From an uncultured virus (IMG/VR IMGVR_UViG_3300030376_005322) (lineage: Duplodnaviria > Heunggongvirae > Uroviricota > Caudoviricetes): a stretch of 20,000 nucleotides of DNA. The stretch lies in IMG/VR virus record IMGVR_UViG_3300030376_005322; one strand, written 5' to 3'. Both the position numbers and the translations under genes were made by a program. Numbering within the stretch: the first letter of the stretch is position 1; each line of letters opens with the position of its first letter. Shown here one piece after another: positions 4,907 to 18,505 of the stretch. The notes below the pieces were generated by a model. The model was not told where the DNA came from and ran no database searches. It worked only from the letters and a program-made list of their open reading frames with translations.

Positions 4907-5157
4907 TGCGTCACCTCCACGCCAATAATACGCATGCTGTGTATCTCCATATTGAAACGAGTGAGAGAGTCCCAGCATTCATTGGGCATCGCATACGATC
5001 CTTCGGATAGTTGTGACCATGCCACCGCTCGGGCTTGTAACTCGTTTTGAATTTCGTGACTGAAAGAATCTAATTCGACTTCCACAGTTAGCGCTTCGTT
5101 TAGTAATATTTTGACAAAATAGTTTGTCACTGTTTTCTGTTTTACTACCATTACCAT
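4903..5157 (-). CDS. Hypothetical protein (84 aa)
   Basis: ORF track, TAAGGA upstream, first gene after promoter 5. Confidence 0.7.
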   Translation of the reverse strand: MVMVVKQKTVTNYFVKILLNEALTVEVELDSFSHEIQNELQARAVAWSQLSEGSYAMPNECWDSLTRFNMEIHSMRIIGVEVTQ

Positions 5158-5187
5158 TCCTTAATGTTGTAAATATGTACACCATCT

Positions 5188-5231
5188 ATGGTAGGGGGTA
5201 AATCTGTAATTGACAAGTGACATGTGTCACA
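5188..5231 (-). promoter_or_regulatory. Cassette promoter 5: AGTGA-N6-TCACA box (5216-5231), CAGATTTACCCCC core, -10 TACCAT (5188-5193)
   Basis: Core partly conserved. Box-to--10 spacing is 22 nt. Confidence 0.8.
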
Positions 5232-5280
5232 CCCAAACAAGCGCCCTCCCGGGTCACCTCCCGGCCTTACCCGGTCTCGA

Positions 5281-5508
5281 AATCTGGGGATACAGCGCCC
5301 GGTGTCAATCTACGTGTGAATCTTGCCCGGTGCGGTTACGCAAGTGTGAATTTTGCCCGGTGTGAATCTGGGAATACAGAATCGGGGATACTTTCATGTG
5401 TGAATTTTCATGTGTGAATCTGGGCACACAAACCCACGTGTGAATCCATGTGTGAATCCCCACCCGCATCAGGGAGATGCAGGCAGGAACCCAACCACAT
5501 GTGTGAAT
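5281..5508 (+). repeat. Dense non-coding cluster of oriented GTGTGAAT (8 copies) and AATCTGGG repeats
   Basis: GTGTGAAT at 5314, 5344, 5360, 5398, 5412, 5438, 5450 and 5501. AATCTGGG at 5281, 5365 and 5417. Confidence 0.9.
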
Positions 5509-5718
5509 TTAATCGACGAGAGAAGCGGAACCTCTAGTTCCAGCCAAACGAGAAGCCGCAGCACCCTTCACTACAGAAAGGGCAGCAGACACGCCAGCCA
5601 TAACAATCATCTTCCACTGATCAACACCAAGGTCCATGACACTATTAGTTGACATAGCGCCAATAGCCGCTTGGCAAAAAGTCGCCAACGTCCTCTCAGC
5701 GAGGTCTTTATAATTCAT
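5509..5718 (-). CDS. Holin, r1t-like family
   Basis: LAERTLATFCQA..., two hydrophobic segments, C-terminal SASLVD, AGGAG RBS. Confidence 0.8.
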   Translation of the reverse strand: MNYKDLAERTLATFCQAAIGAMSTNSVMDLGVDQWKMIVMAGVSAALSVVKGAAASRLAGTRGSASLVD

Positions 5719-5771
5719 TACTACTCCTAACTAAAAAAAAACAATCCACGCCAGCAGGGGCGCATTTCGCC

Positions 5772-7681: not shown

Positions 7682-7918
7682 ATGCCAGAGAACAAATGTA
7701 CAGGCACTGAAGCATCTTATGTCAGAGGATGTCGCTGTGACGAGTGTAAGACATCACGGAGTCTCGCCGTAAAGAGGCGCAGTCTCGAGAAACGCGCAGT
7801 CGAGCGGCCAGCGCCTCCAAAACCAGAGAAAAAAGAAAAAGTATTCCGACTACCACGACTGGACTCCTACGACGACTGTTTAACGCGTGGACAAGTGTAC
7901 AAGTTCCGCGGGTACTAG
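7682..7918 (+). CDS. Small basic Cys-rich protein (GT..SY..GCRCDEC), probable zinc-binding
   Basis: Motif recurrent in actinophage small proteins, TAAGGA RBS. Confidence 0.7.
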   Translation: MPENKCTGTEASYVRGCRCDECKTSRSLAVKRRSLEKRAVERPAPPKPEKKEKVFRLPRLDSYDDCLTRGQVYKFRGY

Positions 7919-8457
7919 CGGAAGAGTGGGCCTAAGACCCAACCAACAGCACACCATCTCTCCCCGTCAGTAACGGGATTAACGCTGTGCAAAGACCAAG
8001 AAGGCCACATAGTGCCTACGCCTTGTTCTTTTGAAACTTCAATATCTTCTGGACCTACAAGGAGATTAACCTCTCCACCTTCATAATCATCTGGTGACGA
8101 CAACTGAATGGAAGTAGATATCTTCCTTTGTGTATAAGTCCCACCCCAGTCTGTGTGCTTTGTGTAAAAGTCTGCAGGCCTGTACCTAAGAACTTCTATA
8201 GAGGGCAACTGGTTGATGTCGAAACCCCAAATGTTGTACCGTCTGCACGCATTCCAAACATCTCCAACTATTTCAGGGTATATAACGCTATCTATAAAGT
8301 AACGAGAGCAGGAGCGTATATCTAACCGTTCGCCTTTAATCCCGTCTTGCTCTACCGTTCCGCTGTGTTCTTTCTGCGATAATGCTGCCCCGATAACAGT
8401 CCCGCACATTTCAGGAGTCCATACTTGGTTTTCTGCATAAACTGACGAGGAATTCAT
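7915..8457 (-). CDS. 2OG-Fe(II) oxygenase (prolyl-4-hydroxylase/PKHD-like)
   Basis: HTD, RKISTSIQLS..DDYEGG, distal H (LHSVNPVT) and ERW motifs. Confidence 0.9.
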   Translation of the reverse strand: MNSSSVYAENQVWTPEMCGTVIGAALSQKEHSGTVEQDGIKGERLDIRSCSRYFIDSVIYPEIVGDVWNACRRYNIWGFDINQLPSIEVLRYRPADFYTKHTDWGGTYTQRKISTSIQLSSPDDYEGGEVNLLVGPEDIEVSKEQGVGTMWPSWSLHSVNPVTDGERWCAVGWVLGPLFR

Positions 8458-8906
8458 TTAACGCCTTTCATCCTGTGGTCTTCACGGAATTGCATAAACC
8501 GTGACGCTAGATCAAAGACAAGGTTATCGTCGTTTACTTTCGCTAACCTCGCTGCTCTTCTTTTTTCCACCCTAGACATGCTGGTCATATCTGTAGAATC
8601 GACGTTGTGGTGAGTGAGAGTTTCAGTCATACGGACAGCCATAGACGCTAACTGTTGAACTACACGTGGATCGTCAAGCCCTCCATCTCCTATGTAACGC
8701 TCCCTTTCAGAAAGAAGGTTCACTGCCATGTCCCATGTTTCTTTCGACGCTGGTTTCATGTCGTAGGCTTCAGCCCACTCTTTTCGTTTAGGCCATTCAG
8801 TCGCTAAATGTTTAGCCGACATTTTTAATCCCTCAGCGATGTCAGCAATCTTTGTTGCCTTATCCATACGGCGCTGTACCTCGTATGGATTACGTTCCTC
8901 AGACAA
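8454..8906 (-). CDS. Hypothetical protein (150 aa)
   Basis: ORF track, overlaps the TerL stop. Confidence 0.75.
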   Translation of the reverse strand: MSEERNPYEVQRRMDKATKIADIAEGLKMSAKHLATEWPKRKEWAEAYDMKPASKETWDMAVNLLSERERYIGDGGLDDPRVVQQLASMAVRMTETLTHHNVDSTDMTSMSRVEKRRAARLAKVNDDNLVFDLASRFMQFREDHRMKGVK

Positions 8907-10227
8907 TTATTCTTACCTTCCGTCTGTTATTCACAAGACTATTCACTGCCCCTGATAAAGCATCTACTTGGTCGTCGTGAGAGCCTTTAGGGAATTGAAC
9001 CAACTCATCTACAAATGTCTTGTTCCATCTTCCTCTTAAAAGTTTTACGTTACCCATCTCTGCTGCTGCAGATGCTACACGGGCACGCTCGACCTTGTTT
9101 CCTGTAGGTCTAACGCCTTTGAAAGCATAGCCAGCCAAAACGTTACGGGCGTAATGGTCGATTGTGTTAACTCCTCCCGAACCGGGTTCTTGCTCCATAA
9201 CTATATCGACACTAGAGCCATCAGCGTCTGCTGTTCTCTTAACAAGATTTTGGACTTCACCGGGAGTGCCTCTCATTCTTTGTATGTCGAAAACGTAATA
9301 CCGGCCTTCGCTTATACCAATGAGAGCGCCTACCGTATAATCGGGGTCTTTCCCTTTCGCTGGCGCTGTTGCTGCTAAGTCCCAGTATCTAACCTTTTTT
9401 ACATCGCTAGGTGGGGTGTCGATCACGTCGAACCAGTCTTGCTCGAACATTCCGCCCGTTTCTGCTACTTCCCAGTTTCCTTCTAAAAGTCTTGCCCTTT
9501 CGACAGCATCTAACTCTTGGAGGCTTCTCACATATTCATCATGGTCCAAAGAAGGGTTATCTGTTATCAGCGACGGCATGAATTTACGATCCTCGGCTTT
9601 GCCTAAAATGAATCTTTCATACACCCAGTCGTTTCCGCGACCACCGGGGTTTGTCGCTGCTCTGACTCTTAAAGGGACATCAGCAACAGACATGCCGCAT
9701 GAAGGGCATCGAGGGATAGTGTCGTGTGCTGTTATTTTACGAACGCGAGAGAAACCCACATATAGATAAACTTTGTCGGAGCCCCACTGTGTTAATTCGT
9801 CTACCCCTACAAACTGGTAAGCAAACGACTGAAAGTTGTAACGATCTTCTTCTCTTTCGCAGTGTCCGAGAGTTACTGTCGCTCCAGAATCAAACGTGAA
9901 CCTTTTATTAGTTACGTTGTAGTCAACATTCTGCCCACTGAACCATTCTTGGCATCTATCTATAAAGCCGTCAGGGCCAGATAACTGCGGGTAGGTCTGA
10001 CGTAAAAGAAGCGCTGAGTAACCGGGAACGCAAACATATTGGAGAGCAGCCATTAAAAGAGTGTCGGATTTACCTCCACCAGCAGCCCCGCCGAATAATG
10101 CTTCTCTAGTCGAGTTCCAAGTTAAGTAAGCCTGTTGTTTCGGGTGAGGCTCATGCGGGATTTTCAGGTTGCATGGTTTCTTCCACGACATCAGCGTCGA
10201 TAATGCTTCCCTCGTCTTCTGATCCAT
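8899..10227 (-). CDS. terL: Terminase large subunit
   Basis: Walker A GGAAGGGKS, Walker B FVGVDEL, ATNP coupling motif, nuclease motifs RYWDLA..DYT and HDDQVDA. Confidence 0.95.
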   Translation of the reverse strand: MDQKTREALSTLMSWKKPCNLKIPHEPHPKQQAYLTWNSTREALFGGAAGGGKSDTLLMAALQYVCVPGYSALLLRQTYPQLSGPDGFIDRCQEWFSGQNVDYNVTNKRFTFDSGATVTLGHCEREEDRYNFQSFAYQFVGVDELTQWGSDKVYLYVGFSRVRKITAHDTIPRCPSCGMSVADVPLRVRAATNPGGRGNDWVYERFILGKAEDRKFMPSLITDNPSLDHDEYVRSLQELDAVERARLLEGNWEVAETGGMFEQDWFDVIDTPPSDVKKVRYWDLAATAPAKGKDPDYTVGALIGISEGRYYVFDIQRMRGTPGEVQNLVKRTADADGSSVDIVMEQEPGSGGVNTIDHYARNVLAGYAFKGVRPTGNKVERARVASAAAEMGNVKLLRGRWNKTFVDELVQFPKGSHDDQVDALSGAVNSLVNNRRKVRIIV

Positions 10228-10825
10228 CTTCGTCTCCGTCCCATGCGTCTAAGACTTCTTTCGGTAAGTCTCCCGCATCAATAAGTGCTTCTAGTACTTT
10301 TCTCTGTCTCTTTGAGTCTATCTCTTCTACCACATGTACATGGGCTGTTAATTGAGTCATAGGACCGCCTTGTGGACCTGTAACTTCTAAACGTGTTGCT
10401 GGGTCTGACCAGCGCTGTGGGTATGCCTTAGCAAGGAACCTCTCTGCTGCCCTCCAGTCGCCATCTACGGCCTCTGTGTACCAACGTGTTACCAGAGCCG
10501 CCTCAGCCTTCCCTGTTGCCTTCTCAAGTTCATTTACGAACCATAGGCAGTCTTCATCAGTGGCGTCCAAAGCCTCTCTTCTAAGTAGTTTCTCTCTTGC
10601 TTCTTCACCTATTTGAATCCACTTATAGAAAGATTGTTTCGTTACTCCGTAAGCCTCATAAGCGGTCTTTTTATAGTTGCCAGCCCCTATGAGTTTTACT
10701 ATTCCTTCGAGCGTTTGCTTCGAGGTATAAAGCCCAGTTCGTCTTACCTTATTTTTTTCAGGGGGAGAGTACTCTGGTTCCATATTTTGTTTATACCTGT
10801 TCTTAGGTTCCTTGTTTGCGGTCAT
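10151..10825 (-). CDS. terS: Terminase small subunit-like protein
   Basis: HTH (GVTKQSFYKW), DWRAAERFL..YPQRW and LEVTGPQGGP. Lies directly upstream of TerL. Confidence 0.8.
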   Translation of the reverse strand: MTANKEPKNRYKQNMEPEYSPPEKNKVRRTGLYTSKQTLEGIVKLIGAGNYKKTAYEAYGVTKQSFYKWIQIGEEAREKLLRREALDATDEDCLWFVNELEKATGKAEAALVTRWYTEAVDGDWRAAERFLAKAYPQRWSDPATRLEVTGPQGGPMTQLTAHVHVVEEIDSKRQRKVLEALIDAGDLPKEVLDAWDGDEDGSEDEGSIIDADVVEETMQPENPA

Positions 10826-11601
10826 TTAATTCCTACCCACCCAGCGAAGTTCATCCATCTCCAGAAACATTCTCTGTGGGTGAATCCGCTGTGCTCTAAT
10901 AGATATTCGTTCCATTCTTCAGTAATAGGGGTCATAACCCCTTCAAGGCTAAGTCTTTTACGTTCGATTTGTTCCTCTGAATAGCCCATACTCCGTTTAT
11001 GGTTATGGTAAATGTGGATCATCTCTTCGTTGAGTTGTTGTGTATCGCCTTCAAGTTTTTCGACCAGAACAAGCCTGCCTTGCGGCTTAAGAACTCTATA
11101 TAACTCATCAAGAATCCTAAGCCTGTGAACAACAGGAGTGAACTGAAGCGTCAATACACACAGTACCACATCAAACGACTCATCTTCAAAGGCTAGATGG
11201 TCTCTTAGGTCATGGAAATAGAATCGGTAACGGTCATCATTCTCCCCCAACTCTAAAGCCCTGTTAAGCATCGGCTCCGAAATATCAGTGCCTACCAGTC
11301 TCGTGATCGTGTGATTATTTGCTTTAGCGTAATCATCTAAGCCTTTAAGGGCTAAACCGTTCGAGCAGCCAACATCTAAAACATCTTGAATATGAACATC
11401 AGGGCCGTGAAATGCTTTTTCGGAATCAATATAGAAAGCATTTTCATTCTGGTAGTTCACAACCCAAGGAGCCGCTATAGCGTTTACTGCTTCCCTCATT
11501 TTTCTGTAATCAGGGATGCTGCGTTCAAGCATATTGTCGAAGACAGCCGCTACTTCTTCATCGAACTCCCAGTTATCTTCTGGGATAACTTCATCACGCA
11601 T
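10822..11601 (-). CDS. cmoA: CmoA-like carboxy-S-adenosylmethionine synthase
   Basis: WEFDEEVAAVFDNMLERSIPDY, LDVGCSNG, TLQF, LVLVEK, HKRSMGYSEEQIERKRLSLEGVM (Arg equivalent to CmoA R199) and FWRWMNF. Confidence 0.85.
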   Translation of the reverse strand: MRDEVIPEDNWEFDEEVAAVFDNMLERSIPDYRKMREAVNAIAAPWVVNYQNENAFYIDSEKAFHGPDVHIQDVLDVGCSNGLALKGLDDYAKANNHTITRLVGTDISEPMLNRALELGENDDRYRFYFHDLRDHLAFEDESFDVVLCVLTLQFTPVVHRLRILDELYRVLKPQGRLVLVEKLEGDTQQLNEEMIHIYHNHKRSMGYSEEQIERKRLSLEGVMTPITEEWNEYLLEHSGFTHRECFWRWMNFAGWVGIK

Positions 11602-11640
11602 ATACCCAGCGTACAGTAATTGAAAACTCAGGGGCGGTTT

Positions 11641-12129
11641 TTATGGCAAAAGTGTTTTCCAAGGGCTTTCGTCGTCACGGTTAGCGTCACGACATTCAAC
11701 GCCATTAGCCCGATACATAGACCTAGAATATTTATTCGACTCGATAGCGAAATACATTGCAGGGTCGTCGCCATGACGAGGCATAATTACCTCATTCAAG
11801 TAACGCTCTTTAGCCCTATGCGCTCTTAAAGCACCCTTGCCTGAAGGATCAGGCCACGGGTTAAAGCAAACCTCGTTTGGCTGCCAATCTGTGAGAGATT
11901 TGATTCTGTCAAGGGTTATTTCTTCATACATCACAGAGCGTGCTGTGCAAAGAATAACGTATTCGTTTTTAAGAAGTTCGACCATCCATTTACGGTATTC
12001 TTCGACTTCAGAAACAAATTTCGACATTGGTCGATGCTTAGGCATTTCCTTAAAGTTGCTGGATAAAGCCACATTTAAGTCTTGTAAAATTATCCGCCCA
12101 GAAGGACCGAATGCTATATCACTTGCCAT
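11641..12129 (-). CDS. Degenerate HAD-superfamily (PNKP-phosphatase-like) protein
   Basis: ILQDLN (motif I), ILCTAR (motif II), a conserved K and FAIESN (motif IV-like). Confidence 0.6.
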   Translation of the reverse strand: MASDIAFGPSGRIILQDLNVALSSNFKEMPKHRPMSKFVSEVEEYRKWMVELLKNEYVILCTARSVMYEEITLDRIKSLTDWQPNEVCFNPWPDPSGKGALRAHRAKERYLNEVIMPRHGDDPAMYFAIESNKYSRSMYRANGVECRDANRDDESPWKTLLP

Positions 12130-12486
12130 TTAACGTTTGCCTCCGTCATATACAGTTGCGTGTCCTTCTTCTATAAGGACATCGTTTAAGGAAACTCCTT
12201 CAGAATTTTTTATGATTCCGAGCACCCTGCCGAACTTGCCTTTTTTATCTAATTTGGTTTCGATTATTGGTTCCATTCCTGCTTCGTGGAGGAGCCAGTT
12301 AGCAACGAAATCTTTCGCTGCAAGGCCTCGCTCTTTCTCTTCCAAGTCTCTGGTTCTCGATTCTGGAGTATTGATGCCCACAAAACGAACCCGAGCACTA
12401 TAAGAAATATCGAAGCCGAGGTCAATAACCACATCAATAGTGTCACCATCAACCACCCTTGTAACTGTTGCTTTATATTCATACAT
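12130..12486 (-). CDS. Thermonuclease (SNase-like)
   Basis: RVVDGDTIDV, RVRFVGINTPE, KFGRVLG and LIEEGHA. Confidence 0.92.
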   Translation of the reverse strand: MYEYKATVTRVVDGDTIDVVIDLGFDISYSARVRFVGINTPESRTRDLEEKERGLAAKDFVANWLLHEAGMEPIIETKLDKKGKFGRVLGIIKNSEGVSLNDVLIEEGHATVYDGGKR

Positions 12487-12495
12487 GAATACATC

Positions 12496-14076
12496 TTAGA
12501 GCGCCATGCCTAGTCGCCGTGCGAAGGCATCTAACGCCTGTTCAGCCCTATCTAGGCTTCCCTCTGGATAGGGAAGATCAAATTCAAAGCGTATTGCTTC
12601 GGCTAAAGCCACCGGGTTTATCTCTACCGGGTCGCCCGCTATGCACTGGACGAGGCTGTTAGGGCTGTAAAGATAGGCACGAACGTCACGGAAACCAACT
12701 CTCCAAAGTTTCTCCCATTCATTAGTAGAGAAATACTTTTGGACTTTTGGCCTTTTTATTAAATCAGAAACAACAACTCCTTCTTCATATCCAGCCGAGA
12801 ATGAGGAGTCGAATTGTGTTTCGTGATTAGAGATATTGTCTTTCTGGCCTGTAGCCGCCAAATACCTATCTGCTGTTCTAGAAATAGCGCCAGCGTAAAC
12901 AGTTGTAGATGGAGAAGATAACGCTGAAATAATACGAACGATGTGTAAACGATCACTATGGAAAGGGACACTATTAAGCACAGAGGCTAAGAAAATCGAA
13001 TCAAATTCTGTCCCGTCAGCAACACGGGCAAGAAACATGTCAGTTATGTAACGAGCGCCTTCTATATCGAAACCTGAATCTTTACCGCCTGTGTAATAAG
13101 GCTCAAAGGCTACACAGTCGATCCCCATTACATCTTGCATAGTGTGAGACTTGTCGAGAAGACCAGCCCCAAAATCTAAAACTGTCGTTCCATACCATTT
13201 CTTCCATGCATCAACATGGACAGGGTTTTCGACATCAAACATAGATGCGGCTCTTTGAGTTTTACCTGTCCGAGATAAGGCAGATATTAAATCACAACAC
13301 ATAGTTGGCATTAAAAAATTTTGCCTGTTGCTAGCCCTACGGAAAGAGTTGTACCGGAGAACGTCTGCATACTTATCCTCTAAATCGAAATCCATAGATA
13401 AATGGTTGAGCATTATCTGGGCCAAATTTGCTTTGCTTTTCGAGACTGTGATCGTTTGGACTTCTGGTATCCCTACTTCTGTGGCGTGCTGTAACCTCCC
13501 GATACCATTAACAACATCGCCTTTATGAGTGACGACAAGAGGGATACTTGTTTTCCCCCAATGGTAAAGACTCTCTGCTTGTCGAATTGTGTGGTATTTG
13601 AACTGCTGAATATTTTTAGTTGCAAGTTCCCTAGTATCTTCTTTCTTAATACCCATACATGGATACCATTCGTCTGAATTGACTTCTATATCAGGCAAAC
13701 CTTCTGAGGCCCCAAGAACAACTGATAAAGGCAAGCGTTCCGAGAGGGACTCTCCAGTATCTTGTTTGTCCATATCGTTAGTTGCTCGATTAAAAACTAT
13801 ATTTACGCCTTTACGACGTTGAAGATCAAGCCCATCAAGAAACACAACCGGGACCTTAGAAGCGCCCAATTCTCTAGCAGCATCTAAACGTTGATGCCCT
13901 GATAAAACCTCTCCTGCTGGAGTTGCATACATGGGTAAAAGCCAACCAAGTTTTTTAAGGCTGGTTTTAACCATCTCGAAACGGTGAGGATCAGACCTAC
14001 GAGGGTTGTAAGCGGCTTTCTCTAAAGAGTCAATATCCACTAATTTGATTTGGACAAACTTCGGGTTCCTACTCAT
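12496..14076 (-). CDS. ParB/Srx-domain protein fused to a class I SAM-dependent transferase domain
   Basis: N-terminal YNPR...VLSGHQRL and a second VVNGIGRL. C-terminal VLDFGAG, AFEPYY and FDSIFLASVLNSVP. Confidence 0.8.
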   Translation of the reverse strand: MSRNPKFVQIKLVDIDSLEKAAYNPRRSDPHRFEMVKTSLKKLGWLLPMYATPAGEVLSGHQRLDAARELGASKVPVVFLDGLDLQRRKGVNIVFNRATNDMDKQDTGESLSERLPLSVVLGASEGLPDIEVNSDEWYPCMGIKKEDTRELATKNIQQFKYHTIRQAESLYHWGKTSIPLVVTHKGDVVNGIGRLQHATEVGIPEVQTITVSKSKANLAQIMLNHLSMDFDLEDKYADVLRYNSFRRASNRQNFLMPTMCCDLISALSRTGKTQRAASMFDVENPVHVDAWKKWYGTTVLDFGAGLLDKSHTMQDVMGIDCVAFEPYYTGGKDSGFDIEGARYITDMFLARVADGTEFDSIFLASVLNSVPFHSDRLHIVRIISALSSPSTTVYAGAISRTADRYLAATGQKDNISNHETQFDSSFSAGYEEGVVVSDLIKRPKVQKYFSTNEWEKLWRVGFRDVRAYLYSPNSLVQCIAGDPVEINPVALAEAIRFEFDLPYPEGSLDRAEQALDAFARRLGMAL

Positions 14077-15401
14077 CTCTTAAATTCGTTATGTCCAGTT
14101 GTAGGATCAGCAACCGAAGCCCACACTGAGAAAGAGGACGTATCAAGTTTGAGTAACTGCCCTATCCTGTACCCTCTTTCCTCTTTAGATAAATACCCAT
14201 CAGTAATCATTTTGTGTTCCCATTCTGAATATTGTCTACCGCAAACTTGAACGCTAGTGCTCCCAAACTTTAAGGTTGCTACGCGTCGGACATCCGCCGG
14301 AGCGTCGATAATTGCTGCTGGGTCTCTCTCTTGAGGAAGGTCTTTAAGTACTTCCTCAATGTCTGCTGGCTGAAAGCCTGTACCATCAAGGCTGTCTAAG
14401 TCCATTAACACATTCGCTAAGGACGAATTGTAGTAACCGGCTTTATCTGCCAACCGATTATCAGCAAGCATTATCCTTGTGGCCTCATCGTCATCTAAAT
14501 CCATAAAGACAACAGGAACCTCATCCCAGCCAAGAGATTTAGCAGCCTGCCAAGTATTGTTACCTTTAAGTATCAGGCCGCTTGATTCCTGAATTAGTAA
14601 AGGCCTATAAACGCCATTCACCCTTAAAGATTCACTAATAGCCCCAATGTCGCCTTGCCGAGCGTTCTCTGGGTGAGGAGAAACTGAATCTATAGGAACC
14701 CAATTCAATGGGTCTAGCCCAACATGTTTAGGAGTCTCCCCAGAAATCGTTTTCCATTTTTTAGATTTAATATTTGGTTTAGGGTCAGGGTCCTCGGTTA
14801 GCCCTAACATTCCTCTTATGTGATGAACCGCTTCCTTAGCCCCACCGCAGGAATCAGATATGTTACCGAACCACTCTTTATAGTATTCGGCTTCGACAAG
14901 TAAAAGATTTTTGCCTATAGAAATCTTTGCAGTAGTTGCTTCATCTTGACTATTGGGACCATCGCCTCCTGAGAAGATATCTTCAAAGTCGCTAAATTCT
15001 TCCATCTGGTAAAGTCGTTCGAGTGAGCGTTTATCCCACCCTGAACCTTCTAAGTCAGGTGAAAGTCGTTCAATTAGTTCTATGAGATTCTGTCGGTCAT
15101 AAGTCGCTAAATCAGAAGTGCGATTATCTGCTAACAGAATTCTTTTTGCCTGCTGGTCATCAACTTCCACATGGACAACAGCAATCTCTTTCCACCCGAG
15201 AGATTTTGCTGCTTTCCATGTGTGGTTGCCTGCAAGGATATTTCCGTTGCGTAGGTCTACGACAATGGGCGCGTACTGACCATTGACATCTAAAGACTCT
15301 GCTATACCGGGCACGTCACCCTGTCTAGGATTAGCAGGGTGAGACTGAACTGAGTCAATCCCCACTATGAGTTCTTCTAAGTCGTCAGCAATATTTCCCA
15401 T
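14073..15401 (-). CDS. Tandem ParB/Srx N-terminal-domain protein
   Basis: Two homologous halves: HPANPRQGD..ILAGNHTWKAAKSLGW..LLADNR and HPENARQGD..ILKGNNTWQAAKSLGW..MLADNR. Confidence 0.9.
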   Translation of the reverse strand: MGNIADDLEELIVGIDSVQSHPANPRQGDVPGIAESLDVNGQYAPIVVDLRNGNILAGNHTWKAAKSLGWKEIAVVHVEVDDQQAKRILLADNRTSDLATYDRQNLIELIERLSPDLEGSGWDKRSLERLYQMEEFSDFEDIFSGGDGPNSQDEATTAKISIGKNLLLVEAEYYKEWFGNISDSCGGAKEAVHHIRGMLGLTEDPDPKPNIKSKKWKTISGETPKHVGLDPLNWVPIDSVSPHPENARQGDIGAISESLRVNGVYRPLLIQESSGLILKGNNTWQAAKSLGWDEVPVVFMDLDDDEATRIMLADNRLADKAGYYNSSLANVLMDLDSLDGTGFQPADIEEVLKDLPQERDPAAIIDAPADVRRVATLKFGSTSVQVCGRQYSEWEHKMITDGYLSKEERGYRIGQLLKLDTSSFSVWASVADPTTGHNEFKR

Positions 15402-15417
15402 TACCTAACCTTACTAT

Positions 15418-15681
15418 TTATACGGTTTCTAAGGGAACCTTAATGTATGCGCTGTTATGGTCGTGACCATAAGAAGTCCAACGATGAATCCACTGTTTCG
15501 TGCAACGAAGAGTGTCTGCAAGGTTGTCTAAAGTTTCACCATTATCACGTGCCCAACGAAGTGTCTTTAACAAATCGTTTTGTGCCTCCTGATAAGCGGC
15601 TTTCGCTTCTGCTACTGCGTCATTAGCCTGCTCTACCTTGTCAATAACTTTAGGTATTGCAGGTGTTCTTGATTTTGGCAT
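15418..15681 (-). CDS. Small HTH DNA-binding protein
   Basis: ARDNGETLDNLADTLRCTKQWIHRW. Confidence 0.65.
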   Translation of the reverse strand: MPKSRTPAIPKVIDKVEQANDAVAEAKAAYQEAQNDLLKTLRWARDNGETLDNLADTLRCTKQWIHRWTSYGHDHNSAYIKVPLETV

Positions 15682-15683
15682 AT

Positions 15684-15911
15684 CTATTTACCTCTCTTGA
15701 TATCGGCTCCATCTAGGAGCGTTTTTAATAAGTGAAACAACTTGTTCCACTTTAGATCATCTCTATGAAATGGTTTTACTTGTTTTTCAGATTCTCTTTG
15801 GTAGTCGTCGGCAGATTTACCAGACAACATCTCAAGTTCTAAAGATTCAACGGTACTTCCGTTGGCCATTTCTACAAGCAACTGTTCTTCTTTATTCGTT
15901 ATCTTCTTCAC
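15684..15911 (-). CDS. Hypothetical protein (75 aa)
   Basis: ORF track, operonic packing. Confidence 0.6.
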   Translation of the reverse strand: MKKITNKEEQLLVEMANGSTVESLELEMLSGKSADDYQRESEKQVKPFHRDDLKWNKLFHLLKTLLDGADIKRGK

Positions 15912-16302
15912 CCCAGTCGATTTCTATTTTCCAAATTTTCTCATAATGTGCAACTACCCAAACTATTGCAGAAGGCTTTACGTCTTGATTGAAAGGAGCA
16001 AGCACTAAGCATGTCTCCGATCTATCTGTAACAGCCGCATCAGCAAGGATTAAACCTTCATGGGATTCGGTCATCACTGAACTTTCGTCCATGACTTCCC
16101 AGCCGTGATATACCCGGACAGGACGTTTCATCTCTTTAGCCACTGCCGCTATTTGGGAAATCGCTGTGTACCTAACCAACTGTTCCGTTAAAGCAGGTTC
16201 AGCCTGATCGCTGTCATTACGAGCGTGAGATAAAGCAAATTCCCATTGGTCTTCTGCCTCTCTACACAATCTGGCGTAACGTATTTTTTCGTTCCTATTC
16301 AT
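15892..16302 (-). CDS. Hypothetical protein (136 aa)
   Basis: ORF track, GGAGAGG RBS. Confidence 0.75.
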   Translation of the reverse strand: MNRNEKIRYARLCREAEDQWEFALSHARNDSDQAEPALTEQLVRYTAISQIAAVAKEMKRPVRVYHGWEVMDESSVMTESHEGLILADAAVTDRSETCLVLAPFNQDVKPSAIVWVVAHYEKIWKIEIDWGEEDNE

Positions 16303-16309
16303 ACCTCTC

Positions 16310-18505
16310 CTATTGAGTCCTAGCGATCAAACGCTTAACTAGATCATTAAGGACAGTATTGGAATCTGGTTCCTCACCATCAGTGACGCTATCTACGATT
16401 ACTCGCTTCGCTTCAATGAGTTCATAGATGTCATCATCGATAGTCCCATCAGCAAGAAGGTACCATGCAGAAACATTGTCATCCTGACCGATACGATGGC
16501 AACGATCTTCTGCCTGATCGTGCTCTGCCGGAGTCCAACCTTGTTCCACGAAAAGAACATCAGAAGCCGCAGTAAGAGTAAGCCCTACACCGCCAGCCTT
16601 CATATTTAGAACGATAACCCGAGCATCAGGATCATTCTGGAATGAATCCACTGCTTCTTGGCGAGCCTCGGCAGAGTCTTTACCAGCGACTCTAAGCCCA
16701 CCGAAACGACTGGCTATTTCGTCTACCACAGCAACGTGATGGGCGAATACAACTAATTTACGATCAGTGCTATCAAGGAAAGTGTCTATCCATTCGCAAG
16801 CCGCTTCAATTTTGCCTTCGCCAGCGAGACGCTTAAGCGTAGTGATGTTTGACAATGTGTTAGCAGAGTCTTGACCAGAGCCACCAAAGTAGGAGAGAGC
16901 ATCAAGTTCTGCCCTACGGTATGCCGCCATTGCTGGACCATTAAGATCAACATTAACTTGGTAACGTGCCTTGTCTGGGAGTTCCTTAAGAACTTCTGAT
17001 TTATTGCGACGTACATAGCAGGTACGACGGAGAAGGTCATTTAATTCTTCTGAATTAGCGGAACCAGAAAAGTCCCAACCAAACCGTGTTTTATTCGCAT
17101 TGCAGTAGCGTTTACGGAAGTTCCAAGAACCACCGAATTCGTCGATACGGTCAATAATCTCTAATTGGGAAACCAACTCAATCGGACGATTAAGAACAGG
17201 AGTACCAGTAAGAGCCAGCACCATGCCTTCTGCAGGAATAGCAGACGCTATGTTTTTAAGAGCCTGCGTTCTTTTAGCAGTTGGATTCTTAGCATAATGA
17301 CTTTCATCAAATACAAGCGCTTGGAAACCTAACGCAATAAGAGCATCTTCGTGCTTAGTTAAAATGTCGTAATTGATGATGACAATATCAGCGTTTTTGA
17401 CGCCTGATTTACTATCAACTATGTGGACGTTCTTACCGGGAAGCCATTTACGTGCTTCTCTTTCCCAGTTTGTCTTCAAAGACGCTGGGCAAACAACCAA
17501 TGTCGGGAAAGTGTTTTCTGCTAATACAGAAGCAAGAGCCTGAACAGTTTTACCAAGACCCATCTGGTCAGCGATAAAGCAACGACGTGTATTGGTCGCA
17601 TAGAGAACGCCTGCACGCTGGAATGGACGTAATGTCCCACCAAGGTTAGGAATGTCGAACTCTGCATCAGTGGCTTCTGATTGCATACCACGACGATCGG
17701 AGCCTTCGATATGGTCGCTTAATGCTTCTCTAGTCTCATCGCTTATTTCAACATCATGGAAAGCGGCCAATGTAACAGCCGTATCTGCAGACGACATAGG
17801 AACTACCCAAACTTTACGCTTAGTGTCCCAGCGACGACCAGTTAAACCCTTAACAGCCTCAACAAGGTCAGCGTCATAATCGAAATCAAAAATAAGGTCA
17901 CGGCCCTCAATGTAAAGTGCGCGTTTTTTAGCAACTTCTTCTGGAACTACTGCTTCGTGATCCATTAAAATTTGCAAGGCTTCATCTGTGCATTCAAATC
18001 CGTTCTGTTCAGCGAAAGAACGTAGAAGACCAGCACCGTCAGCCTCAACTACCCAACGGTAATTTGTGCCATCCCATTCAGACCCCATAATGTTACGAAC
18101 TTTGCTAACAAGGTCAGCAGAGTACTTGAAGTAGATATGAAATTCGTTGTTTACGAACTCGATCCTACTTTTACCACGACGTAAGTAATCTGCTTGACGT
18201 GCATCATCACGCCCATCAGCGCCAAAAACTTCAATAGGTGCTGAAAGGTCATCGTAATCAAAACATAAACTTTCGAGTTGGTTGCTGTATTTTTTAAGCA
18301 TCTTGTAGCACTCGGAAGCCATAGCATCAGTCCAGTTTTCTGGAAGAGTATCTGCACAGCGTTGACCAAATTTTGTATCAGAACCGTTAAAGCCCACGCC
18401 GTCTTGTGCCTCGGCACCATCACAGTTCGCCGCTATAAGGCTTACTGCTTCCCAGAGATCATTAATTACATCTTTAGTGTTATGTTGCAAAGTTTCTGTT
18501 TTCAT
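16310..18505 (-). CDS. SNF2-family helicase, SMARCAL1/HARP-like
   Basis: DQMGLGKT, DESH, LTGTP and QAEDRCHRIGQ, plus two N-terminal HARP-like repeats. Confidence 0.92.
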   Translation of the reverse strand: MKTETLQHNTKDVINDLWEAVSLIAANCDGAEAQDGVGFNGSDTKFGQRCADTLPENWTDAMASECYKMLKKYSNQLESLCFDYDDLSAPIEVFGADGRDDARQADYLRRGKSRIEFVNNEFHIYFKYSADLVSKVRNIMGSEWDGTNYRWVVEADGAGLLRSFAEQNGFECTDEALQILMDHEAVVPEEVAKKRALYIEGRDLIFDFDYDADLVEAVKGLTGRRWDTKRKVWVVPMSSADTAVTLAAFHDVEISDETREALSDHIEGSDRRGMQSEATDAEFDIPNLGGTLRPFQRAGVLYATNTRRCFIADQMGLGKTVQALASVLAENTFPTLVVCPASLKTNWEREARKWLPGKNVHIVDSKSGVKNADIVIINYDILTKHEDALIALGFQALVFDESHYAKNPTAKRTQALKNIASAIPAEGMVLALTGTPVLNRPIELVSQLEIIDRIDEFGGSWNFRKRYCNANKTRFGWDFSGSANSEELNDLLRRTCYVRRNKSEVLKELPDKARYQVNVDLNGPAMAAYRRAELDALSYFGGSGQDSANTLSNITTLKRLAGEGKIEAACEWIDTFLDSTDRKLVVFAHHVAVVDEIASRFGGLRVAGKDSAEARQEAVDSFQNDPDARVIVLNMKAGGVGLTLTAASDVLFVEQGWTPAEHDQAEDRCHRIGQDDNVSAWYLLADGTIDDDIYELIEAKRVIVDSVTDGEEPDSNTVLNDLVKRLIARTQ

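Follow-up and report, generated by a model that had tools for sequence, protein, structure and literature searches.

A methyltransferase-fold protein fused to ParB-like domains, here termed ParB-X, is encoded together with a CmoA-family protein in a conserved gene module of phages, which was analysed starting from a 20,000-nucleotide (nt) stretch of DNA from an uncultured marine phage (IMG/VR record IMGVR_UViG_3300030376_005322). The whole of this stretch is referred to below as the window, and in it ParB-X (12496-14076) and the CmoA-family protein (10822-11601) are both encoded on the minus strand. Gene counts across 83 related loci identify ParB-X and CmoA as the core of the module, usually with a small HAD-fold protein (p162) and a separate ParB protein. 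Judged by its sequence, the CmoA-family protein is probably a synthase of carboxy-S-adenosylmethionine (carboxy-SAM), and the chances are about even that ParB-X is a carboxy-SAM-dependent transferase that acts on DNA. More tentatively, ParB-X may found a second, non-homologous class of DNA carboxymethyltransferase that targets a ring or exocyclic nitrogen, or an oxygen, of a base, is loaded through ParB/sulfiredoxin (Srx) domains beside the packaging machinery and leaves further processing to the HAD protein.

The first report of natural DNA carboxymethylation dates from December 2025, and a single enzyme type, the C5-cytosine enzyme CmoX, is known so far. As described in that report (Yang et al., 2025; PMC12783734), a phage CmoA supplies carboxy-SAM to CmoX, a homologue of C5-cytosine methyltransferases, which forms 5-carboxymethylcytosine at GC sites. 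CmoX contains an SPPC motif and an arginine (Arg350; R350 in SpCmoX) that contacts the carboxymethyl group, and in Synechococcus phage S-B43 the ligase CmoY then adds glycine to give 5-glycylcarboxymethylcytosine. Its authors note ParB-domain proteins in many CmoA/CmoX contigs, and state that a preliminary search gave no candidates for N6-adenine or N4-cytosine carboxymethyltransferases associated with CmoA (PMC12783734). The general concept that a phage CmoA feeds DNA carboxymethylation is already published, and ParB-X is a different protein family. The first-pass annotation of the window had proposed such a route for ParB-X; the concept itself has experimental backing and the co-occurrence of the two genes is strong, but the experiments concern a different transferase, CmoX.

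Linkage of ParB-X and cmoA

The 83 ParB-X loci consist of three cultured phages and the best 80 of 331 IMG/VR stretches, with ParB-X identities to the window protein of 31-98%. Searches with jackhmmer and tblastn place a CmoA-family open reading frame (ORF) just downstream of ParB-X in 72 of the 83 loci, and 10 of the 11 loci that lack one end either 0-715 nt past ParB-X or inside ParB-X itself. Among the loci with room downstream, 72/73 carry the CmoA-family gene beside ParB-X, across six diverged clades. The first-pass annotation had advised a survey of gene neighbourhoods, and its expectation that the two genes co-occur in other phages is borne out by these counts. In one clade (L038, L039, L041, L043-L049 and L053) the association extends to a 4-nt overlap between the stop of ParB-X and the start of cmoA.

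Full-length homologues of ParB-X are found in Gordonia phage Evaa (37% identity), Aeromonas phage HJ05 (35%) and 12 records of the Pseudomonas SM1/PaMx31 group (31.5%), and the linkage is also seen in several marine clades. The gene order in the cultured phages is ParB, ParB-X, (phosphatase), CmoA-type methyltransferase and terminase region. For 13 of the 15 proteins scanned, namely the 11 most divergent linked ORFs and the HJ05 and SM1 proteins, the best NCBIfam match is the CmoA model TIGR00740. The pairing of ParB-X with cmoA persists at ParB-X identities of 31-43%, in phages of unrelated hosts and beside different terminases; a terminase large subunit of the window type is present in only 26/83 loci, and p162 in 67/83. 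The ParB-X family is represented by 331 IMG/VR stretches and by 247 clusters at 50% identity, and extends over phages of Actinobacteria, Gammaproteobacteria and marine hosts.

Other possible users of carboxy-SAM were sought by family searches. The nearest record to the window (G001) is an 11.7-kb fragment, and the absence of CmoB and CmoX from whole genomes was therefore checked in relatives. The C5-methyltransferase family PF00145 is absent from all 10 ParB-X records searched, among them the complete genomes of Evaa, HJ05 and SM1. Four CmoA phages without ParB-X served as a reverse control, and three of them (S-B43, Y3 and TurkishDelight) contain PF00145. In five ParB-X records the CmoB model TIGR00452 gave one sub-threshold match (14.3 bits against a cut-off of 275), which falls on the CmoA-like gene itself, and neither PF01555 nor PF02086 was found in any of the five. 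A CmoY-type ligase (PF00733) was matched in one of the five, weakly and ~8 kb distant. As PF00145, CmoB, PF01555 and PF02086 are all missing from the searched records, ParB-X is left as the sole other methyltransferase-fold candidate to use carboxy-SAM, and the distribution makes ParB-X and CmoX look like alternative partners of CmoA.

Two further CmoA phages show other arrangements. Streptomyces phage TurkishDelight (L090, 671-5699) has the order ParB, ParB, C5-methyltransferase (PF00145, 183 bits), a glutamine-amidotransferase/asparagine-synthase-like gene and CmoA, which shows that CmoA systems of both kinds have separate ParB genes ahead of them. Alcaligenes phage Afa-NA1 (L088, PV550095.1; loci 4971-5723 and 8196-9515) has a CmoA homologue (TIGR00740, 131 bits) and matches neither a C5-methyltransferase nor full-length ParB-X. 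It encodes, ~2.5 kb downstream of CmoA, a D12-class N6-adenine DNA methyltransferase of 439 amino acids (aa) with an N-terminal extension of ~190 aa, possibly a third type of partner for CmoA.

Features of the CmoA-family protein and ParB-X

The top NCBIfam match of the window CmoA-family protein is TIGR00740 (142.4 bits, E 1.8e-41, model positions 13-239 of 239). Aligning it with E. coli CmoA gives 30% identity over 253 columns (E 6e-32), and its matches among PDB sequences are the CmoA crystal structures 1im8 (E 2.7e-27) and 4gek (E 3e-25). In an alignment of 20 sequences that includes the characterized E. coli CmoA and SpCmoA, residues F20, F28, D62, G64, G68, F137, G158, K165, K198 and L202 (E. 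coli numbering) are invariant (20/20), and the Lys198 equivalent is likewise invariant across 61 linked CmoA-like homologues. The arginine of the KR..LE.VM motif, which the first-pass annotation had reported as retained, is indeed present: the window protein contains KRLSLEGVM, in which K215 corresponds to E. coli Lys198 and R216 to Arg199. The latter residue is described in E. coli CmoA as forming a salt bridge to the carboxymethyl carboxylate (PMC3663124).

The AlphaFold model of ParB-X was built from 31 homologues (predicted local distance difference test score 88.4). It predicts an N-terminal domain of the ParB/Srx fold (approximately residues 8-103), an assignment to which both the fold and a ParB_N profile match contribute. 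A second, degenerate ParB-like segment follows (approximately 145-225), and the C-terminal part forms a divergent class I, Methyltransf_23-like, SAM-binding fold (approximately 285-485 in the model) with additional C-terminal helices. ParB-X has the Rossmann-like fold of class I SAM-dependent methyltransferases, with motif I (D/E-x-G-x-G) and an acidic residue after strand 2. Motif I is conserved as D301-x-G303-x-G305, as is E325, and the cofactor site is intact. After strand 4 the family conserves N368, P371, F372, D375 and R376, and R241, E431 and Q446 are likewise conserved; two of the arginines are near-invariant among 108 family representatives (R241 in 105/108, R376 in 107/108).

ParB-X has no match to PF00145, PF01555 or PF02086 in Pfam, none to the CmoB model TIGR00452 and none in NCBIfam as a whole. 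Neither the 31 nor the 108 homologues contain an invariant cysteine, and an SPPC motif is lacking. The statement of the first-pass annotation that the transferase lacks the Pro-Cys motif of C5-cytosine methyltransferases thus stands for the methyltransferase fold, but not for the whole polypeptide: a Pro-Cys dipeptide occurs at P139-C140 (window 13657-13662), in the linker between the ParB-like segments. C140 is kept in 85% of the 108 representatives and is Val or Ile throughout one CmoA-linked clade. Motif IV of amino DNA methyltransferases is a tetrapeptide, (D/N/S)-P-P-(Y/F/W); the corresponding stretch after strand 4 of ParB-X, N368-S-V-P371-F372, is one residue longer.

Sequence comparison places ParB-X in a family of its own. 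The single sequence matches nothing among PDB sequences, and a profile finds only ParB proteins together with a marginal UbiG match (E 0.063). A search of 1.84 billion representatives assigns the methyltransferase domain to a narrow family, which comprises 247 clusters at 50% identity; nearly all members have a length of ~500 aa and are fused in the same way. A sister clade of this domain unaccompanied by cmoA was sought as a contrast, and the exhaustive search returned one tight family that offers none. Aligning ParB-X with E. coli CmoA by hhalign gives a probability of 1.4%, from a single-sequence template of low power. Neither CmoB nor CmoX is among the 50 matches listed for the ParB-X model by VIA-align, which is no evidence that the folds differ.

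The gene block of the window

The genes named by the first-pass annotation (tandem ParB, ParB with the SAM-transferase, SNase, HAD-like and CmoA-like) were all located where it had placed them, and form a compact block of genes with a common orientation on the minus strand. In 5' to 3' reading order the block and its flanks comprise:

16310-18505, minus strand: SNF2 helicase, the first gene in reading order
between the SNF2 helicase and the tandem ParB gene, minus strand: three small ORFs
14073-15401, minus strand: tandem ParB protein, 442 aa (Pfam ParB_N twice, E 5.5e-17; phrog_8071 and phrog_723, ParB-like, E 1e-76 to 1e-79)
12496-14076, minus strand: ParB-X, 526 aa (weak ParB_N at residues 9-79; full-length match to phrog_5475, unknown function, E 1.8e-90)
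12130-12486, minus strand: SNase, a staphylococcal-nuclease-like endonuclease, 118 aa (Pfam SNase, E 1.2e-8; phrog_452, E 7.6e-41)
11641-12129, minus strand: p162, HAD-fold protein, 162 aa (fold search)
10822-11601, minus strand: CmoA-family protein, 259 aa (TIGR00740, 142.4 bits)
10151-10825, minus strand: terS, terminase small subunit (phrog_4102, E 4.9e-19)
8899-10227, minus strand: terL, terminase large subunit (phrog_979, E 6.1e-110; Pfam Terminase_6C, E 1.2e-15)
7915-8906, minus strand: after terL, a 150-aa ORF of unknown family and a 2-oxoglutarate (2OG)-Fe(II) oxygenase (PF13640; 7915-8457)

The stop of cmoA and the start of terS share four nucleotides (ATGA), in agreement with the overlap described in the first-pass annotation. 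Its report that the window holds neither CmoB nor a tRNA gene was also confirmed: ARAGORN detects no tRNA gene, and in a Pfam scan of 34 window ORFs no methyltransferase domain was found besides that of the CmoA-like protein, so that no CmoB is encoded in the window. Scans of the window give 7 promoter-like sites (16.2 expected) and 10 terminator-like sites (9.1 expected), no excess of either, and a megablast comparison of positions 10000-16000 with cultured phages gave no match. A stretch of 77 nt (10151-10227) is shared by the terS and terL ORFs, which are in different frames, and the alignment of the terL ORF to phrog_979 begins only at profile position 144 of 642.

The tandem ParB protein contains two ParB/Srx-type N-terminal domains, in which GNHT and GNNT replace GERR, and in most of the related loci tblastn locates a homologue of it upstream of ParB-X. 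The SNase and the 2OG-Fe(II) oxygenase were considered as core parts of the module and rejected, the former being present in only 4/83 loci and the latter in 22/83. The 150-aa ORF that follows terL recurs in 28/83 loci. In Erwinia phage Y3 a gene annotated as 'oxygenase' lies two genes away from its CmoA.

By fold search p162 is a capless HAD protein closest to the 3'-phosphatase domain of T4 polynucleotide kinase. Its motifs are atypical (D17-L-N19, T62-A-R64, K107 and E130-S131-N132). T62-A-R64, K107 and the nucleophile, Asp17, are invariant, whereas Asn19 replaces the second aspartate of motif I and motif IV reads E-S-N; the D-x-D-x-T signature of motif I in HAD phosphatases is thus not present, and p162 is HAD-like, as the first-pass annotation had said, but probably no standard phosphatase. 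At the sequence level a profile search of the PDB gives nothing significant, and Pfam yields nothing beyond a weak NIF match for four of 20 members, the best at E 0.075. In some relatives the p162 homologue makes up the C-terminal portion of a larger ORF, of 602 or 254 aa, with DUF3721 and DUF5824 (L028, 2465-4273; L019, 7585-8349). The gap between p162 and cmoA is 39 nt in the window (11601-11641) and ~320 nt in L005 (2411-2733) and L006 (2703-3025), where ParB-X is 94-98% identical, which suggests an insertion or deletion of ~280 nt.

Proposed mechanism, alternatives and relation to known systems

The conserved module would consist of at least one ParB protein, ParB-X, CmoA and often p162, directly upstream of the terminase genes. 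By homology, the CmoA-family enzyme would make carboxy-SAM from SAM and prephenate (PMC3663124; reviewed in PMC10491745). The class I domain of ParB-X would then bind carboxy-SAM and carboxymethylate the phage's own DNA, as gene linkage and fold suggest, with the ParB/Srx-type domains bringing the protein to that DNA. As the ParB-X family has neither an invariant cysteine nor a C5-methyltransferase domain, the acceptor would be a nitrogen or oxygen nucleophile and not the C5 of a pyrimidine. More speculatively, p162 might process either the end of a polynucleotide or an intermediate that carries a phosphate. DNA modification might take place alongside the action of the packaging genes, before or during packaging, and might have an anti-restriction function by shielding the DNA from host nucleases.

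Several observations weigh against this proposal. The ParB-X fold, as judged by fold search, resembles small-molecule and tRNA methyltransferases and not DNA methyltransferases, so that the case for DNA as the target comes entirely from the ParB fusion and the gene context. ParB-X does not specifically resemble either of the known users of carboxy-SAM, CmoB and CmoX. The hhalign comparison with E. coli CmoB gives a probability of only 18.8% over 79 columns, also from a single-sequence template of low power. In CmoB the carboxylate is bound by a triad of Lys91, Tyr200 and Arg315 (PMC4482062); the alignment places ParB-X N368 on Tyr200 and W291-K292 on W109-K110, and leaves Lys91 and Arg315 outside the aligned stretch. 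The window CmoA-like protein scores below the TIGR00740 equivalog cut-off (142.4 against 193.3 bits), and of the 61 non-redundant CmoA-like proteins in the linked set only 29 have the Arg199 equivalent, the others having Glu (23), Lys (4), Ala (3) or Asn (1). SpCmoA from Synechococcus phage S-B43, for which rapid synthesis of carboxy-SAM is reported (Yang et al., 2025; PMC12783734), was taken as a control for both points; it scores only 115.6 bits and has Glu at the Arg199 position. Neither the cut-off nor the arginine therefore decides activity, and the cut-off separates the bacterial tRNA-pathway equivalogs. The 83 loci are a best-scoring subset with shared ancestry, and the counts are not of independent events. 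Finally, one locus (L083, 3409-4400) has ParB-X and p162 without cmoA, with a terS-like gene directly after p162. The host CmoA might supply the cofactor there, since E. coli CmoA alone was enough for SpCmoX in vivo (Yang et al., 2025; PMC12783734).

It is rather unlikely that ParB-X uses carboxy-SAM on a target other than DNA, such as a nucleotide, another small molecule or a packaging protein; in that case the ParB/Srx domains would act as nucleotide-binding or kinase-like modules and not as DNA clamps. Fusions of ParB to DNA methyltransferases are common in phages, and many of the ParB matches are annotated as DNA or adenine methyltransferases (e.g. phrog_498). ParB proteins also belong to the published CmoA/CmoX systems (PMC12783734), and the module adjoins the terminase genes in diverse phages.

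A second alternative, which is unlikely, is that ParB-X is an ordinary SAM-dependent (DNA) methyltransferase and that the CmoA-like protein acts separately, either as a drain on SAM against SAM-dependent host defences or in changing host tRNA. The lack of a demonstrated carboxylate-binding residue in ParB-X, the variation at the Arg199 position and the retention of ParB-X in L083 without cmoA would agree with this, and depletion of SAM by phage CmoA is raised as an open question in the Discussion of Yang et al. (2025; PMC12783734). Two independent functions would not, however, predict adjacency in 72/73 loci of six diverged clades, the 4-nt overlaps or a distribution complementary to that of CmoX; moreover, the searched records have no CmoB to use carboxy-SAM for tRNA, and L083 could be served by the host enzyme. 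That the module acts on RNA, carboxymethylating or repairing host tRNA to counter anticodon nucleases much as Pnkp/Hen1-type RNA repair does, is very unlikely, as fold-search rows within ~1 Z of each other are ties, the window encodes neither a kinase nor a ligase nor a tRNA, motif I of p162 is missing its acid/base Asp, and four ParB-type domains and the adjacent terminase suit DNA better.

If ParB-X does carboxymethylate DNA, a widespread second partner of CmoA would mean new DNA base chemistry, of a kind so far unseen in natural DNA, and a new scaffold for the binding of carboxy-SAM; a function might also emerge for the ParB domains that are joined to modification enzymes. Direct tests are feasible, as Gordonia phage Evaa, Aeromonas phage HJ05 and Pseudomonas phages of the SM1/PaMx31 group have already been cultured. 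A literature survey on carboxy-SAM-dependent DNA modification in phages found only Yang et al. (2025) and no description of the ParB-X family; the supplementary files of that paper, outside the survey, may list CmoA contexts without CmoX. For the SM1/PaMx31 group, no title or abstract on DNA modification was found.

The module shares with the CmoA/CmoX/CmoY system a phage CmoA homologue beside a methyltransferase-fold gene, ParB-domain proteins nearby, the absence of CmoB and the proposed purpose of carboxy-SAM, which in both would be made to modify DNA. Unlike CmoX, ParB-X has no PF00145 domain, SPPC motif or invariant cysteine and is fused to two ParB-like domains, and in place of the CmoY-type amide ligase, which is not general in ParB-X records, a HAD-like gene is usual. 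Similarly, the bacterial CmoA/CmoB pathway to cmo5U (uridine 5-oxyacetic acid) in tRNA has the CmoA family in common with the module, and the class I fold is of the small-molecule type in ParB-X as well as in CmoB. ParB-X differs from CmoB in that it has no TIGR00452 match and no CmoB N-terminal extension and carries ParB domains, and the window has no tRNA genes. The p162 protein departs from T4 polynucleotide kinase/phosphatase in motif I (D-x-N instead of D-x-D) and motif IV (E-S-N instead of D-D) and has no kinase domain. In architecture ParB-X resembles the ParB-fused DNA methyltransferases of phages and plasmids (e.g. phrog_498), which likewise combine an N-terminal ParB domain with a SAM-binding domain and often lie beside the terminase; the SM1 annotation carries the CDD label 'ParB_N_like_MT'. 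The annotated fusions contain adenine or other DNA methyltransferase domains, whereas ParB-X contains a Methyltransf_23-like domain of its own family.

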